Assembly (NCBI GenBank): GCA_964489085.1
Contig: CAZAXO010000001.1
Location: 1,483 to 65,482, forward strand
DNA: 64,000 bases
Direction of reading: 5' to 3'
Source: an uncultured Candidatus Bathyarchaeia archaeon
GTDB taxonomy: Archaea; Thermoproteota; Bathyarchaeia; 40CM-2-53-6; DTGE01
A model generated the notes under the pieces. The model saw only the letters and a program-made list of their open reading frames with translations, did no database searches and was not told the DNA's origin. The translations under genes were made by a program, and so were the position numbers. Positions 12,617 through 63,813 of the stretch are shown one piece after another (the first letter of the stretch is position 1; each line of letters opens with the position of its first letter).

Positions 12617-12643
12617 ACTTTTCTAATCACTTTTTTTATTTTA

Positions 12644-12682
12644 TTTATATAAATATAAACAATTATCATATTTAAATATATA
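12644..12682 (-). promoter_or_regulatory. conserved TATA-rich promoter-like element (copy 1)
   Basis: TTTATATAAATATA(A)ACAATTATCATATTTAAATATAT lies 28 bp upstream of the 12616 start. A second copy at 18887..18925 matches in all but 2 positions. Confidence 0.45.
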
Positions 12683-18886: not shown

Positions 18887-18925
18887 CTTTTTTATTTTTA
18901 TATAAATATAGACAATTATCATATT
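18887..18925 (-). promoter_or_regulatory. conserved TATA-rich promoter-like element (copy 2)
   Basis: Matches 12644..12682 in all but 2 of 39 positions. It sits directly upstream of the helicase gene and contains the palindromic ATATTTAAATAT. Confidence 0.45.
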
Positions 18926-18958
18926 TAAATATATGTTATGATTATACATATATTGAAC

Positions 18959-45353: not shown

Positions 45354-45571
45354 ATTTGGATATTCTTTCCTAACTTCTTCCTCAAGCTCTTCTGCTCGTT
45401 CGAATAGGTCTTTTTCGTTTACTGTTTTTTTTTTAGCCCAAACTTTTATTATCTCATATTTTTCGGTTTTTTCTTTTACTATGTTTAACCACCTTTTGTA
45501 TTTTCTTATTATCGGTTTTTAATTAAATTTTTTTATAAATTTTAAAAATTTTTTTTATATTTAAATTTTGA

Positions 45572-45608
45572 ATTATAACTTAATAATCAACTATTATTAA
45601 GTTATAAT
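45572..45608. promoter_or_regulatory. 37-bp palindrome in divergent intergenic region
   Basis: ATTATAACTTAATAAT-caact-ATTATTAAGTTATAAT. The 16-bp arms are perfect inverted repeats, and the palindrome lies at the minus/plus strand-switch point. Confidence 0.5.
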
Positions 45609-45686
45609 AAAAGTTTTAAATTTTATAATTTTTTTATATAATTTATTATTAAATTAACTTTCCAAATTGACATAGGTGGGATACAT

Positions 45687-58059: not shown

Positions 58060-58271
58060 GTTCCATCATCGGATAGGTTACTTATATTGTCAGCTCTATT
58101 GCAGAGATGCTCTAATAGATTGTTAATTCTTTTATTTAGTTTAATTATTTGTTCAACGATATTTTTATCTCGTTTATATTTAAATACTTTCTTAAGTATT
58201 CTAAATGAACTATTTAAATCCACGCTTTGTGTTGTTGCTCTTATTATAAACTTCTGAGCACTTCTTACCAT
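58047..58271 (-). CDS. small protein, paralog of 33575..33796
   Basis: FKYKRDKNIV...DDGTWEP. Confidence 0.35.
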   Translation of the reverse strand: MVRSAQKFIIRATTQSVDLNSSFRILKKVFKYKRDKNIVEQIIKLNKRINNLLEHLCNRADNISNLSDDGTWEP

Positions 58272-58370
58272 AGTGAAATATTCTCCATTGGTTAATTACT
58301 TTTTTGTAGGAATTCTATTATATTAATAATACTGGGGATTATATATAAAACTTTTTGATTTCCTGTTCTG

Positions 58371-58494
58371 AGAATTCCAATGTACTCCCCCTACCTTCCC
58401 TTTTTTTAGGGTAGTATTACTCCGGTTGTATACGTAAATGTAGAGTGTCAGCGACCAGAGTCAGTACCCGTCAGTAAATGTACATTGGAATTCT
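58371..58494. repeat. 15-bp perfect inverted repeat (AGAATTCCAATGTAC / GTACATTGGAATTCT) flanking a 94-bp GC-richer core
   Basis: Arms at 58371..58385 and 58480..58494. The core contains the CCCTA..TAGGG hairpin and three GTCAG repeats. It lies in a 545-bp ORF-free region. Confidence 0.5.
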
Positions 58495-58816
58495 TGAGAT
58501 TATCTATTTTTTTATAAATATGAACACACATTAATCTTATAGCGTGATTGTCATATCGATCGTGAAACTACTTCTCAAATTATTACTATATAATTTTGCG
58601 GGAAAAAATTATAATGTTATAATTTTCTGTATGTATATATATTATAGTAATATATTACATTATTGATATTATTATGATAGAAATAGTTGGGGTATGTACT
58701 GTCATCTATATAACGGTGGTATATAGACTATAATCCTATAATTATAAGGTTATAATTTATGGTTACAATAAAAAAAATATAATTGAGAATAAATAAGTTA
58801 TATCTTTAGTAGAAAA

Positions 58817-59122
58817 TTATTCTAATCTCCAATCTCCGGTAAACTCTACGTTATCTTCGATAAAATCAGGACATTCAAAATAATATTTATGTTCTTCGTT
58901 GGTTAATATCCATATTTTTTCTTCTACTTTAAATAGAAATTTTGGAAATCTTGTTACTCTTGGATTTTTTAGTGTTGATATGAGTTTTCTTTTATTTTTT
59001 ATACGTTTTATGTTATAATTTTCTAATACTAGTTTTCCACCGTATCCATACTCTTTTGCTTTTAGAATTAATAATTCCTTTAACTCTTCCTCTAATTTTG
59101 TTAATTGAGACATTTTATTCAC
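58817..59122 (-). CDS. small protein of the C-terminal (F/Y)TGDW family
   Basis: Ends in VEFTGDWRLE. Confidence 0.35.
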   Translation of the reverse strand: MNKMSQLTKLEEELKELLILKAKEYGYGGKLVLENYNIKRIKNKRKLISTLKNPRVTRFPKFLFKVEEKIWILTNEEHKYYFECPDFIEDNVEFTGDWRLE

Positions 59123-59571
59123 CTAATATCTATCCATCCACTTCCCAAACAATTTGGACATAATCTTTTTCCTTCTCCATTTGAATCTATAAAACCCTTT
59201 TCGGGGATTAGTCCCTTACCATCACATACAGGACAAGAAGGATCGAATTTTACAATTATACCTCCTTTATTTAATAATTTATAAATCTCATTTTGTATTC
59301 TATTGTAACTTATTTCAAACATATGATAACTAGCAAGAATACCATCGAAGTGGAAATGATAATCTAGATGTATGTCTCTTCCGGTGATATATTTACTACA
59401 ATCTTGTACCATCACTTTATCTTTACATGAAAATTTTCTTATTTCTTTTGCTACCATTTCTATTGGTTCCAATAGATCCCCTAATTTCTCTATTGCAGAG
59501 ACCAATAATTTTTTGTTTAACTTATTTTCTTTCGAAAGTTTACTCTTTAGTTTCGTTATCACAAGATTCAT
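59119..59571 (-). CDS. protein with C-terminal CxxCxGxG zinc-finger repeats
   Basis: CPVCDGKG...CPNCLGSG, a DnaJ-type zinc-finger pattern. Confidence 0.35.
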   Translation of the reverse strand: MNLVITKLKSKLSKENKLNKKLLVSAIEKLGDLLEPIEMVAKEIRKFSCKDKVMVQDCSKYITGRDIHLDYHFHFDGILASYHMFEISYNRIQNEIYKLLNKGGIIVKFDPSCPVCDGKGLIPEKGFIDSNGEGKRLCPNCLGSGWIDIR

Positions 59572-59858
59572 CTGACTCTAGTATTATAACATAAATAAGA
59601 AGTGATGCCATTAGGATCGACATTAATATATGTTGTATATTGGACATTATTGTATGCCATTCTATTGATTTGTCATATCCAAAAAATATAGTAACCGATC
59701 CTACAATAAAAAGACATACGAGTATTGCCAATGTAAACGAAAGATGTATTATAGGTGTTATCTCAATTTTCTCCGTTATTCATCAAATCCGTATTGTTTT
59801 GGATTTTTTATTTTTCTTATTGTGTTTTTCGCCTTTTCTTTATCCAATTTCATAATTT

Positions 59859-60140
59859 TTACCTTTTATAGATTCTCCATTTACCTGTGAAATATAGGTG
59901 ATCTTCTATTTTTTCTTCTTGTACTATCGATGTCAGTCCGACCGGAGATAATATTTGAAATGTAGAAGGATATAACGCGTATATAAAGACAACTCGTTTA
60001 CTTTTTCTCCATTTATCTTCTAGAAATTCAAGTAACTTCTTTTTATCCTTTAGTTTCTTGAAATCTTCGTTAGATAATGGACAACCGTGTCTATCTTCCA
60101 ATAATCCCTTTATTCTTTCATCTAAACTAGATAAACTCAT
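59859..60140 (-). CDS. small protein of the C-terminal (F/Y)TGDW family
   Basis: Ends in LYFTGKWRIYKR. Confidence 0.3.
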   Translation of the reverse strand: MSLSSLDERIKGLLEDRHGCPLSNEDFKKLKDKKKLLEFLEDKWRKSKRVVFIYALYPSTFQILSPVGLTSIVQEEKIEDHLYFTGKWRIYKR

Positions 60141-61129
60141 ATTAACACCGATTGTATTTTATATTTTTTCTTTTTGAAATATTTATGATCAAAATATTCA
60201 ACACCGTTAATTATTTTTATTCCGATTTTACATAAATACATTATTTTCTTTAATAATTTTCCATTTATAAACTCTATTTTTTCAAATATACCACTTTCTA
60301 TAAAGAAATCTATTTCTCCTTTTGTAAACTTACCATTTGTAACAATATATCCTTTGTTAATTTTGAGTTCATTCATCAATATTTTAAATCCAAATTCGTT
60401 TATATTCCCATTTGGTACTGTATTTTCTGGGTTACCTTTGTGTTTTGCTTCTACCAAGAATGTCAAAGTTTCACTAACACCTTTTATTTTGAATATTCCA
60501 TCTGCGTTTAGTCCTGTACCTGCTGGTTTTATATAAACTATATCACAGTTTTTTAAGATAGTCCAAGATCCACGTAATGCAGTAAGAGATAGATGTTCAA
60601 ACTCTGTTGAACTCATATTTAATATATATGGATCTACAAATATAGAATAATCTTGTTCAGATTTCAATTTACTATTACCCTTCTGTATTCTGTAACTCTT
60701 AGTCAGGTCTATTATTGTAGTATTAAGAATAATATCTCCATATTTTTGTCTGTATGGATCATCCTTAGGGTATTTATGTAAGTTAAATCGTCTATATTTT
60801 TCAAATTCCCTTTTTAATGTATTATTATATAACATACGTCCTTTATTAAATACCATAAAATCTCTTAAAAGTGGAGTTATTTTATATGTCGACTCAGCTA
60901 TCCTTATGGCAAACCCAAAAGGTATAAGATAGTCTTCGAATGATTTCCTTGTTCTATATTCATACCTTGGTTTTATATCTCCACCATTTAATATCTTTTG
61001 CTCTTCTTTTGTTATATCAAATCTCTTTATAATTGCCTTTAATAATTTATCTTTATGAAAACTTTTATTTTCATATTTATATAATGATTTACAAAAAAAT
61101 AAGGTTATATCTAATATTCTTGGTATCAT
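60137..61129 (-). CDS. putative PD-(D/E)xK nuclease-fold protein
   Basis: NADGIF...LTFLVEAKHKG resembles the D...(E/D)xK restriction-endonuclease-like core. Length 330 aa. Confidence 0.3.
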   Translation of the reverse strand: MIPRILDITLFFCKSLYKYENKSFHKDKLLKAIIKRFDITKEEQKILNGGDIKPRYEYRTRKSFEDYLIPFGFAIRIAESTYKITPLLRDFMVFNKGRMLYNNTLKREFEKYRRFNLHKYPKDDPYRQKYGDIILNTTIIDLTKSYRIQKGNSKLKSEQDYSIFVDPYILNMSSTEFEHLSLTALRGSWTILKNCDIVYIKPAGTGLNADGIFKIKGVSETLTFLVEAKHKGNPENTVPNGNINEFGFKILMNELKINKGYIVTNGKFTKGEIDFFIESGIFEKIEFINGKLLKKIMYLCKIGIKIINGVEYFDHKYFKKKKYKIQSVLI

Positions 61130-61130
61130 T

Positions 61131-61703
61131 TTAATTTATTCCTAACTTTTTCATATTTGTTTGTACTGTGGAGTCAGAACTACCTGATAAACAACTTTTA
61201 CATATTATATACATAGTATTTTCTACTACGTTATATGCTCCACTTATTTCTCCTACCGACTCAAATTCTATTATTTCACCACATCTACAACAGCTTGTAA
61301 CTACGCGTATATTTTTATGTCTTTTTGCTTCTATTATTTCTGATGGACATATTGCTTCGTCAGCACCAGTTATTACGTGTTTATAATACGGTTTGTTGCA
61401 TTTTGGACATATATCATTTAATTTGTATTTACCCACTGTATCAGAGATAGGATTATAGATGTAGAGTTCAAGTGCATCTAATAACTCTTTATTATATTTG
61501 TCTTCTAGTTCTTTTATGGTAGATTCCATAAATGATTTACTAAAGAAATCATACCCATCTAGAGCTCTATTTAAAAGTTTTGACATTGTATCCTTTAGAG
61601 CATCCAATTTACCATATATGGTAGTAAAATTTACTCTTATTGTATTATTTACCAGATTTAATATTTTTGTTTCGAATTCTTCTAAGTTATTCATATTTCT
61701 CAC
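61131..61703 (-). CDS. Cys-rich zinc-binding protein
   Basis: CPKCNKPYY...CPSE...CCRCGE...CKSC. Confidence 0.35.
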   Translation of the reverse strand: MRNMNNLEEFETKILNLVNNTIRVNFTTIYGKLDALKDTMSKLLNRALDGYDFFSKSFMESTIKELEDKYNKELLDALELYIYNPISDTVGKYKLNDICPKCNKPYYKHVITGADEAICPSEIIEAKRHKNIRVVTSCCRCGEIIEFESVGEISGAYNVVENTMYIICKSCLSGSSDSTVQTNMKKLGIN

Positions 61704-61884
61704 TTAATTTTTTGGTTATATATCTACAATGTATGTTTACGTTATTTATAACATTATTACGTTTCATCTACTTTCATAATTGTAAACTTTAACATTGTAA
61801 AATTTTTTATAATTTTTAAATAAATTTCCAAAAATATAAATTTTGATTTTTTCATCTAATTCCTGTAGAACTACTTTTTATGGT

Positions 61885-62035
61885 ATTATGAAAAAACATA
61901 ATATATTATGGAATTTCATAATATTTATAAGGTAAAATTATGTTTTTTCATAATATATTTAAATCAGTATTATGTAAACTCATAATATTTATAAATTGAT
62001 ATTATGTAAGAACATAATATTTAAATATGTTAATT
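61885..62035. promoter_or_regulatory. array of about five palindromic CATAATAT / ATATTATG iterons in a divergent intergenic region
   Basis: Elements seen: cataatatattatg (a perfect 14-bp palindrome), attatg-N6-cataatat, tattatg-N6-cataatat and atattatg-N6-cataatat. The region lies between minus-strand and plus-strand gene blocks. Confidence 0.5.
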
Positions 62036-62075
62036 GTTTATATTTATATAAAAATAAAAAAATTTGGAGGTCAAA

Positions 62076-62336
62076 ATGTTAACCATTAATGATGAGTTGA
62101 TAACTCAAGAAGAATTATCTAAATTATATGAAACATCTATATCTTATTTTAAGGAATTATATCCAGATTCCTTTAAACCATGTTTAATGGTTTGTACATG
62201 GCTTAGTGGAAATTTTCCGGTTTTTTGTGTTGAAAAAAGTAAATTGGAGGAATCTGTTGAGTTTAATTCGTTGTGTAGTATGTGTTGTGAAAGAGAATGG
62301 TGCTTTAGAAATGATCACTCTGAGGAGGACACATAA
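62076..62336 (+). CDS. small Cys-rich protein (C..WCF..H..EE family)
   Basis: A GGAGGT Shine-Dalgarno site lies 5 nt upstream of the ATG at 62076. The tracked ORF starting at 62064 begins with TTG. The protein ends in CCEREWCFRNDHSEEDT. Confidence 0.45.
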   Translation: MLTINDELITQEELSKLYETSISYFKELYPDSFKPCLMVCTWLSGNFPVFCVEKSKLEESVEFNSLCSMCCEREWCFRNDHSEEDT

Positions 62337-62339
62337 CTT

Positions 62340-62474
62340 ATGAGACAAGTATACAACTGTGGAAATTGTAATTATCGTCCTACTTGTGAAAAGGAAGGTG
62401 TGAATAAAGATGCCGACTGTCGCAAAGAAAACTGGTGTTTCGAGCACAGTCATTTTGAGGAGGGAGATCCATGA
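62340..62474 (+). CDS. small Cys-rich protein, paralog of preceding gene C-terminus
   Basis: 44 aa, MRQVYNCGNCNYRPTCEKEGVNKDADCRKENWCFEHSHFEEGDP. It is below the ORF-track cutoff. Confidence 0.3.
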   Translation: MRQVYNCGNCNYRPTCEKEGVNKDADCRKENWCFEHSHFEEGDP

Positions 62475-62623
62475 ACCAAGCTACTTATGAAACGAAAAAG
62501 AAGGAAGCAACCGATTTCTTTCAAAGAATATATAAAAACTTAGATCCAGCGGATATAGAAGTTTATTGGTTAGGTGGAGGTATACCTATTTTTTATATAG
62601 ATACTAATAAATACAAGTTCTAG
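62471..62623 (+). CDS. hypothetical small protein
   Basis: 50-aa ORF whose start overlaps the stop of the previous gene (ATGA). Confidence 0.25.
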   Translation: MNQATYETKKKEATDFFQRIYKNLDPADIEVYWLGGGIPIFYIDTNKYKF

Positions 62624-62627
62624 AGAA

Positions 62628-62804
62628 ATGAATCATAAAGAAATAATGGATAGGATGTTAGAAATTCAAAACAAATATAATAACAATTCTGATTTATTTC
62701 AACAAGATAAGGAGTTTATAGAACTGGCTGGTAAATTGAAATATACCAAAAGAAAACGAGTTTCTATAAATAAAATAATAATAGAGGAAAATAAAAATGA
62801 GTGA
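62628..62804 (+). CDS. hypothetical small protein
   Basis: 58-aa ORF overlapping the next start. Confidence 0.25.
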   Translation: MNHKEIMDRMLEIQNKYNNNSDLFQQDKEFIELAGKLKYTKRKRVSINKIIIEENKNE

Positions 62805-62991
62805 AGAAGATTCAGCATATGAAATTGTTGAAATAATAGAATATGGAAATGGTGTTTGTTCACACTGTGAATTATGGTCTAGAGGTAGTATATATGAGGT
62901 TACGGTTAAAAACAAATATAATTGTGATATACATCGTATCTGTTACGGTTGTTTTGAATGGTTATACAAGCATTATAAATTAAAATATTAA
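62797..62991 (+). CDS. small Cys-rich zinc-binding protein
   Basis: CSHCELW...CDIHRICYGCFEW. Confidence 0.4.
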   Translation: MSEEDSAYEIVEIIEYGNGVCSHCELWSRGSIYEVTVKNKYNCDIHRICYGCFEWLYKHYKLKY

Positions 62992-63003
62992 GGAGGTGAT
63001 AAG

Positions 63004-63198
63004 ATGACTTACTTTGGAGATTGTCGTGACCTACACTATGCTGAATCTGATTTCAGTGGAGGTAAATGTACACACCTGGTTCATGATACGGGTAAATGTG
63101 TATTTGGTCACGTCAAATGCTCAGGAAAAAGAGCTTGTATAGACAGGGTACATAAAATGTATCCTGATGTCTATGGTGAAAAATGTCCATATTATTAA
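63004..63198 (+). CDS. small Cys-rich zinc-binding protein
   Basis: A strong AAGGAGGTGAT Shine-Dalgarno site precedes the ATG. The protein has eight Cys. Confidence 0.45.
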   Translation: MTYFGDCRDLHYAESDFSGGKCTHLVHDTGKCVFGHVKCSGKRACIDRVHKMYPDVYGEKCPYY

Positions 63199-63281
63199 TC
63201 TTTTTGTTTTTATTGTAAGTGTGTTCTAACTTATAGAACACCAATAAAAAACATAAAAAATAAAAAAAAGTTGACGATAAG

Positions 63282-63491
63282 ATGTTGTGTGCAGTCTATA
63301 TAAAGATAGGAGATTCGGATTATAATAGGCTTAATATAAAAAGTGAACTCATAAAAAAGACTCAGCATATACTAACTGATACTATAGGAAAGGCTGTGTT
63401 TATAGAAAATCCAATAATTTACAAAGACGAAGATAGTACCGAAGAAATAATTTACAATAGTGATAATAATATGTTTATAACTTCAAGTTAA
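63282..63491 (+). CDS. hypothetical small protein
   Basis: 69-aa ORF. Confidence 0.3.
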   Translation: MLCAVYIKIGDSDYNRLNIKSELIKKTQHILTDTIGKAVFIENPIIYKDEDSTEEIIYNSDNNMFITSS

Positions 63492-63528: not shown

Positions 63529-63813
63529 ATGGGTGAATTAGATATTGTTGATGATACAATAGCCAGACTTGAGAATGAGCTTCATGTGGAATCAAATAGG
63601 AGGATGAATATCTTCGTAGATGATACTGTAAAGGGCAATACTGGTACTTATAGGTTTAGACAATGCTGTGATTGTTGTGAGTGGTTGGAAAAGGAGCTTG
63701 AGTATATGCATATTTTCAAAAATTTGGTGGATCCCAATGGTGATAAAAGAATAAAGAAGGTATATAATAGGTATATTAAGAAGCAGAGGAAGATATTAAA
63801 TGATACTAGATGA
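63529..63813 (+). CDS. hypothetical protein (CCDCCEW motif)
   Basis: A GGAGATGGTG Shine-Dalgarno-like site lies upstream. Length 94 aa. Confidence 0.35.
   Translation: MGELDIVDDTIARLENELHVESNRRMNIFVDDTVKGNTGTYRFRQCCDCCEWLEKELEYMHIFKNLVDPNGDKRIKKVYNRYIKKQRKILNDTR

Follow-up and report, generated by a model that had tools for sequence, protein, structure and literature searches.

The window analysed here is a stretch of 64,000 nucleotides from an uncultured Candidatus Bathyarchaeia archaeon (contig CAZAXO010000001.1 of assembly GCA_964489085.1, positions 1,483 to 65,482). It belongs to a putative viral element whose sequence is also present on a 69,955-bp NCBI contig. Searches over the whole element covered 68.5 kb, namely the window and a 4.5-kb continuation on a 58-kb Logan contig (run SRR14802572). 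A gap of 372 bp (61704-62075, 15% G+C) parts a minus-strand gene (61131-61693) from a run of small genes on the plus strand, which starts with the ATG at 62076, and the two sides diverge, as an earlier reading made from the letters alone (the sequence-only reading) had stated. The right half of the gap is occupied by a 136-bp array of five copies of a 20-bp palindrome, TATTATG-N6-CATAATA, whose last position coincides with the start of a promoter module:

61884-61903: site 1, TATTATG-AAAAAA-CATAATA, centre 61893.5, 0 mismatches
61904-61923: site 2, TATTATG-GAATTT-CATAATA, abutting site 1 (20-bp step), followed by TTTATAAG
61936-61955: site 3, AATTATG-TTTTTT-CATAATA, 1 mismatch, 32-bp step, followed by TATTTAAAT
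61968-61987: site 4, TATTATG-TAAACT-CATAATA, 32-bp step, followed by TTTATAAA
62000-62019: site 5, promoter-proximal, TATTATG-TAAGAA-CATAATA, abutting TTTAAATA
62019-62061, plus strand: 43-nt core-promoter/leader module ATTTAAATATGTTAATTGTTTATATTTATATAAAAATAAAAAA, with box 1 at 62020-62027 and box 2 at 62043-62050
62066-62071 and 62076-62078, plus strand: Shine-Dalgarno (SD) sequence GGAGGT and ATG of the first small gene

The palindrome array and its promoter

The centres of the five sites are separated by 20, 32, 32 and 32 bp, and a repeat search registered the array as a family with a 32-bp period. The hexamer ATTATG was present in all ten half-sites, the T flanking it in nine and the next A in eight; the 6-bp spacers were constant in length, differed in sequence, and had only their A/T-richness in common. 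Conserved arms with dyad symmetry, a fixed spacer length, a free spacer sequence and clustering at a promoter are the features of an operator array, and are as would be expected for the sites of a dimeric, dyad-symmetric DNA-binding protein. With a helical repeat of 10.5 bp, the five sites all fall within approximately ±35° of one face of the helix, suggesting that they may be occupied cooperatively. TATA-like boxes follow sites 2, 3 and 4 at the positions listed above, and the array looks like a series of reiterated operator plus TATA modules.

The array is real and far from chance. When the 372-bp gap was shuffled 20,000 times with its dinucleotides preserved, no shuffle had two or more sites (five observed), which disposes of the AT-rich background as an explanation, and four perfect copies of any one 7-N6-7 palindrome appeared in none of 5,000 shuffles. 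No further site with up to one mismatch was present in the 68.5 kb. The sequence-only reading had described the repeats as clustered inverted copies of the 8-mer CATAATAT and its complement; all of these strings are present (five plus-strand copies of the 8-mer within 61897-62020, complement at 61903 and 61999), the real unit being the 20-bp palindrome. Another string that it had listed as a unit, cataatatattatg, is merely the junction at which sites 1 and 2 abut. Over the window the 8-mer was not enriched (15 copies observed vs. 11.5 expected), so that the signal consists of palindromic pairing and clustering. A CRISPR array (repeats of 24-48 nt, unique spacers) was also considered and ruled out: the units here are 20 bp long and are separated by 0 bp or by 12 bp of TATA-like sequence.

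The element carries archaeal-type replication genes (a flap endonuclease of the fen_arch type, 2e-83; a small subunit of RFC, 1e-58; a Hel308-like helicase; and PolB), and its promoters were therefore read in terms of a TATA box and a B recognition element (BRE). For the same reason, a scan for sigma-70 promoters was uninformative (22 hits vs. 22.7 expected from shuffled sequence; no intrinsic terminators found). The 43-nt module has the layout ATTTAAATATG-N-TAATTGT-N-TATATTTATATAAAAATAAAAAA and occurs three times in the genome, with 0 copies expected from shuffles. The other two copies are on the minus strand:

18888-18930, minus strand: module copy 2, upstream of the Hel308-like helicase gene
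12635-12677, minus strand: module copy 3 (3 mismatches), before a 93-aa gene, with no palindrome upstream

Only the copy at 62 kb has the five-site array. One degenerate site (TATATG-N6-CATAAC, 18936-18951) lies just upstream of the helicase copy, and the leader TTTGGAGGTCAAAA is common to the helicase gene and the small-gene operon. The three copies suggest a single class of co-timed promoters, and the core promoter, present twice without the array, is presumably competent on its own.

Boxes of the type TTTAWAWA are approximately eightfold denser in the non-coding DNA of this genome, and before other first-in-operon genes the TATA-like boxes are located 42-78 nt from the start codon. Box 1 (TTTAAATA) falls within this range in the three module copies (-56, -60 and -63), whereas box 2 (TTTATATA) falls outside (-33 to -40) and is further disfavoured because it would leave no space for the conserved SD leader. 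Box 1 is thus the predicted TATA box; with this choice, the right arm of site 5 would lie on the predicted BRE, flush with the TATA box. Since the module is downstream of the array, the array itself would be upstream of the promoter and probably untranscribed.

A TrmB-like protein as candidate binder

The sites most likely bind a small regulator encoded by the same element, as judged from their form and from the gene content. The leading candidate is a winged helix-turn-helix (wHTH) protein encoded 1.7 kb downstream of the array, within the same gene run:

63800-64087, plus strand: gene for a 95-aa single-domain TrmB-like wHTH protein (P0001), of which the window holds the 5' two-thirds (to 64000); L002:10272-10559 on the public contig
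directly after it: partner gene for a 108-aa protein, "MSIKLLDK..." (the pair is L002:10272-10879)

This protein matched the TrmB family PF01978 of Pfam above threshold (34.8 bits, cut-off 25.6, E 1.5e-8), and PF01978 was the only transcription-factor-type Pfam domain among the 119 proteins predicted in the 68.5 kb. Its top sequence match in the PDB was TrmB of P. furiosus (3qph, 8e-5, residues 33-98 of 342). A single-sequence AlphaFold2 model showed a three-helix wHTH with a wing region and a long helix (predicted local distance difference test, pLDDT, 83-89 over residues 1-40); in Foldseek, the top matches of this model were all wHTH regulators, every one with E > 0.2. The C-terminal sugar-binding effector domain of classical TrmB and TrmBL1 is absent from the 95 residues, and the protein belongs with single-domain members such as OxsR. 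The suggestion in the sequence-only reading that an encoded helix-turn-helix protein might bind the repeats is a plausible one.

An exhaustive HMMER search retrieved a family of full-length homologues of approximately 100 aa, and a profile search gave 78 members, several labelled as metagenome-assembled genomes (MAGs) of Promethearchaeota or as marine sediment. In every genomic context that was read (L101-L110 and the window element), the wHTH gene was followed by a gene for a Lys/Glu-rich protein of approximately 100 aa starting with MSLL(D/E)K. The two genes form a conserved module, found in some cases in Promethearchaeota MAGs, and the homologue at L107 adjoins a gene for a small GTPase of the Arf/Ras type.

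Four of these loci (L104-L107, proteins 31-36% identical to P0001) were compared in detail. Their wHTH gene has its own promoter with three related sites: site 1, ACTTATG-N6-(C/A)ATAAGT, at about -100; site 2, weaker, 33 bp downstream of site 1, in which the right arm and the TATA box are fused (CATAAGTTTATAAA, the fused TATA sequence being TTTATAAA); and site 3, downstream of the TATA box but before the SD sequence, a position typical of a repressor. Across the four loci the arms were invariant and the spacers variable. Three features are common to these promoters and the window (CATAATATTTAAATA): the core TTATG-N6-CATAA, a step of approximately 32-33 bp, and the fusion of an arm to a TATA box. 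In shuffled upstream regions of 200 bp, at least one core site occurred in 2-3% of cases and three sites in 0 of 5,000.

The element itself had no close relative in the collections searched. Positions 58-64 kb had no megablast match among GenBank phages, a word-indexed protein search with the wHTH and the 187-aa protein retrieved only the element itself, and scans of IMG/VR (for the two-palindrome pattern, the promoter module, the 190-aa plus Mrr-like neighbours, PolB and a profile of the TrmB-like subfamily) returned nothing useful, the best PolB match there having 25% identity. A relaxed two-palindrome pattern gave 65 and 32 loci in the metagenome and genome collections, none of which shares a protein with the element or encodes a member of the wHTH family. 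These loci were rejected as relatives and represent unrelated repeat families, including a site pair of Acidobacteriota. Five contigs of the Ga01573xx series (L017, L021, L030, L053, L062) carry unrelated AT-rich 35-bp tandem palindromes (GAATTATTATTATGTCGCGACATAATAATAATTC), and L009, a non-coding contig of 1.6 kb, is packed with unrelated ATTATG-N6-CATAAT units at steps of 20 and 31 bp.

Mode of action and alternative explanations

The reading preferred here, to which we give a probability of roughly 55%, is that the array provides operators for a dimer of the TrmB-like protein, which would probably repress the small-gene operon by occluding the BRE and the TATA box. A host-type archaeal TATA/BRE promoter would drive the operon; as the 95-aa protein accumulated, it would bind TATTATG-N6-CATAATA as dimers, and adjacent dimers, 20 or 32 bp apart (approximately two or three turns), would reinforce each other. 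The dimer at site 5 would cover the position of the BRE and abut the TATA box, transcription factor B (TFB) and the TATA-binding protein (TBP) would be excluded, and the operon would be turned off, so that a set of early genes would be under negative feedback of a switch-like kind. Steric hindrance of TBP/TFB is the way in which TrmB itself represses (PMC4706686). Repression is favoured because site 5, on the predicted TATA box, occupies the BRE and adjoins the TATA sequence, because operator-free copies of the promoter exist elsewhere on the element, and because the third operator of the relatives lies over the transcription start site (TSS). We infer the choice of TATA box, the identity of the binder, the cooperativity and the sign of regulation from the arrangement of sites and genes.

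Several observations weigh against this reading. The L104-L107 promoters are approximately 85% identical and so amount to one independent lineage, and their core in common with the window was defined only after both motifs were known. L101 and L103 have only a half-site plus a TATA box, other lineages (L108, L110) carry different palindromes, and no close relative with the same array was found in any collection searched. The wHTH gene is 1.7 kb from the array and may belong to another transcription unit, downstream of a T-run; this T-run and its accompanying palindrome (63199-63260) may split the gene run, and autoregulation is consequently not certain. The binder could instead be a host factor or a Zn-ribbon mini-protein that went unrecognised. 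If box 2 were the true TATA box, all five sites would be purely upstream, an arrangement favouring activation, and TrmBL1 (PMC4706686) and OxsR (PMC9426492) do activate from sites upstream of the BRE/TATA.

L108, a related small-gene locus, contains four TAACAA-N2-TTGTTA palindromes (L108:4397-4592) at steps of approximately 30 bp, an analogous multi-site control region with a different motif. About 450 bp upstream of them (L108:3680-3940) there are approximately six iteron-like direct repeats, TGCGAGCC...ATGTAA(A/T)CC, at steps of approximately 50 bp.

Activation is the sense in which the array would act as an upstream activating sequence, with the dimers recruiting TBP/TFB and boosting this copy of the promoter over the two operator-less copies. 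The whole array is upstream of the conserved promoter module, both TrmBL1 and the single-domain OxsR activate when their motif is upstream of the BRE/TATA (PMC4706686, PMC9426492), and with TTTATATA (62043-50) as the TATA box the centre of site 5 would be approximately 37 bp upstream of it. However, an identical core promoter is found at two places that lack the array, so that it does not depend on activation to be a promoter; with box 1, which fits the promoter-ATG distances better and spares the SD leader, site 5 overlaps the BRE; and at L104-L107 one site is in the repressor position, past the TATA box and ahead of the SD sequence. Activation, the main alternative to repression, is considered fairly unlikely. 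The sequence-only reading had left the choice between iterons of an origin and operators of an early promoter; of these, control of a promoter was supported, since the array abuts a promoter module, its sites are of the dimer type and homologues of the wHTH gene have the palindrome core at promoters of their own, and the origin was not. Repeated initiator sites (iterons or boxes like the origin recognition box, ORB) in an AT-rich unwinding region at the strand switch would account for the 15% G+C of the gap, the regular phasing, the divergent genes and the minimum of cumulative GC skew near 62 kb. But the units are palindromes instead of direct repeats, AT-richness is not specific, the array is welded to the promoter module, and no Rep, Orc1/Cdc6, MCM or primase was recognised by Pfam among the 119 proteins predicted. 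The skew flips with gene orientation everywhere, equally at 46-50 kb, and so provides no independent information about an origin. The other divergent gap (45354-45686), which is located among the replication genes and has a large palindrome and AT-rich repeats of its own, is no worse a candidate, and an origin at the array is improbable.

F sopC, pNOB8 AspA and lambda cosB also have palindromes in tandem to which a small wHTH adaptor binds. An array of this type, acting in partition like a centromere or in recognition for packaging, would be consistent with tandem dyad-symmetric sites at a fixed period, and with the small wHTH protein and its conserved partner of approximately 100 aa encoded nearby. 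No NTPase of the ParA, ParM or TubZ type and no terminase was recognised by Pfam/PHROGs in the 68.5 kb, although divergent proteins could escape Pfam, and the sites at the homologous loci are at the TATA/TSS positions of the wHTH gene itself, which is operator geometry; this explanation is very improbable. Equally doubtful is that the repeats need no dedicated binder, being either RNA hairpins in a long 5' leader or the product of tandem duplication of a promoter fragment. Each unit can form a hairpin of 6-10 bp (-3.2 to -6.8 kcal/mol) and a 204-nt stretch had a folding z of -5.6, but such folding is a trivial consequence of the palindromes, the loops are unconserved with both arms strictly kept, and the array, with the promoter module downstream of it, is probably untranscribed. 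Against Rfam 15, the window had no hit at gathering score, and positions 58200-62100 had none at E <= 1. Duplication is consistent with the TATA-like box that follows each of sites 2-5, as if an arm plus TATA module had been copied, but alone it does not account for ten of ten inverted half-sites at a fixed 6-bp spacing.

Comparison with known systems and other features of the element

A multi-operator control region for a virus-borne winged-helix regulator is of a known kind, and what stands out here is the five phased sites and the fusion of operator and TATA box. As a genetic switch it would be ordinary, but its host group is unusual and has hardly been studied. The lambda OR/OL regions also combine several dyad-symmetric operators, a divergent control region, cooperative dimers and a regulator encoded on the same element. 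They differ in working with sigma-70 and three sites at about 23-24 bp (here TATA/BRE and five sites, with 32-bp steps), and here no antagonist such as Cro was identified.

Among archaeal viruses, the repressors of the SNJ2 Orf4/phiH1 type of haloarchaeal viruses are similar in architecture (a small winged-helix protein, an interrupted palindrome by the TATA box and a divergent intergenic region; PMC10123103). The SNJ2 Orf4 palindrome tolerates changes in spacer sequence but not in spacer length, and repression of this type is thought to block TFB/RNA polymerase (PMC10123103). These systems have one or two palindromes, as opposed to five helically phased sites here, and their proteins belong to the phiH1-repressor-like family, not to the TrmB-like PF01978; no sequence similarity is claimed. 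TrmB, TrmBL1 and OxsR of Euryarchaeota have the PF01978 DNA-binding domain and palindromic sites in common with the present case; the site of the TrmB type (Thermococcales glycolytic motif, TGM) is TATCAC-N5-GTGATA, and its position with respect to the BRE/TATA decides between repression and activation (PMC4706686, PMC4158304, PMC9426492). OxsR is a single-domain TrmB protein able to act alone (PMC9426492). The differences are the absence here of a sugar-sensing C-terminal domain (95 aa), the motif (TATTATG-N6-CATAATA), the location on a virus or mobile genetic element, and five sites vs. one per promoter. The SSV1 regulator F55, together with SvtR and AvtR, is similar in being virus-encoded and in having repeated sites which overlap the BRE/TSS of early promoters, and the occupation of multiple sites by proteins of the F55 type is concentration-dependent, with a logic like that of lambda CI (PMC5569661). 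These are, however, ribbon-helix-helix proteins with Sulfolobales hosts, and F55 binds direct repeats in tandem (ATAGATAG).

Archaeal viruses have very few known regulatory circuits (F55, SvtR, AvtR, SNJ2 Orf4; PMC5569661, PMC10123103), and none is known from a virus or mobile element with a link to Asgard archaea. The locus offers a compact hypothesis made up of a 95-aa protein, a 20-bp site, five phased copies and a defined promoter module, and TTATG-N6-CATAA fused to a TATA box is a motif with which related control regions can be located. A link of the array and the wHTH family to Asgard-associated elements is probable. A bolder and distinctly speculative version, unlikely on present grounds, is that the array, the TrmB-like protein and the "MSLLDK" partner make up the master early/late or lysogeny-type switch of an undescribed Asgard (Promethearchaeota-like) virus or mobile element, in which five phased dimers, lined up on tandem operator-TATA modules, would build a nucleoprotein filament along one side of the DNA. 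Such a circuit would be the first of the cis-regulatory kind to be defined in a virus associated with Asgard archaea. Should the sites be merely routine autoregulated operators, they would still provide an annotation for the control region of a 70-kb element that is otherwise an orphan.

The element appears to be a virus, judging from its gene content and from its resemblance to the published repertoires of Asgard viruses. The likeness to Nidhogg and Fenrir consists of a PolB near those of haloarchaeal myoviruses, RFC-like ATPases, ERCC4 and glycosyltransferases; the PolB of the element had its best tblastn match (24.6% identity) in haloarchaeal tailed viruses, and genes for ERCC4 and UDG are also present. 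No capsid, portal or terminase was recognised by PHROGs/Pfam in the 68.5 kb, and no integrase was found on the element. A gene set for preQ0/7-deazaguanine is located on the minus strand at approximately 20-37 kb (GTP cyclohydrolase I, 7e-61; PTPS/QueD, 1e-25; QueC, 1e-13; and two radical-SAM proteins), which points to modified DNA bases in the element.

The genes and signals around the array are the following:

61131-61693, minus strand: gene for a 187-aa protein with CxxC pairs, divergent to the small-gene run
62076-62336, 62340-62474, 62471-62623, 62628-62804, 62797-62991 and 63004-63198, plus strand: six small genes, several of them Cys-rich
63199-63260, plus strand: T-run CTTTTTGTTTTT directly after the stop codon, and palindrome GTGTTCTA-N5-TAGAACAC (63221-63241)
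63282-63491 and 63529-63813, plus strand: two more small genes

The plus-strand run of Cys-rich mini-proteins led by GGAGGT thus agrees with its description in the sequence-only reading. No Pfam family was found in the six small genes (62076-63198). The 187-aa protein likewise had no family and no database match other than itself, and its structure model was unusable (pLDDT 43). The palindrome at 63221-63241 is followed by an A-rich stretch, and the region 63199-63260 may be an archaeal-type internal terminator, or else a second control point or operator dividing the gene run.

Two other non-coding gaps contain palindromes. The divergent gap at 45354-45686, between the genes on the PolB side and those on the RFC side, has a palindrome with 13-bp arms, ATAACTTAATAAT-caac-tATTATTAAGTTAT (approximately 45574-45604), flanked by two AT-rich direct repeats of approximately 43 nt that include TATA-like boxes. 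This gap might serve as a bidirectional promoter region, or might be a better candidate for an origin. The gap at 58272-58816 contains a perfect 15-bp inverted repeat, AGAATTCCAATGTAC...GTACATTGGAATTCT, around 94 unusually G+C-rich nt (58371-58494). Read as minus-strand RNA, it gave -40.1 kcal/mol (z = -4.1) with no match to Rfam or to tRNA, and it may be a structured non-coding RNA. The same 545-bp gap carries another family of palindromes, AATTATAA-NN-TTATAATT, which may be operators of another factor; its members are located at 58607-58625, at 58740-58758 and, in degenerate form, at 58577-58597.

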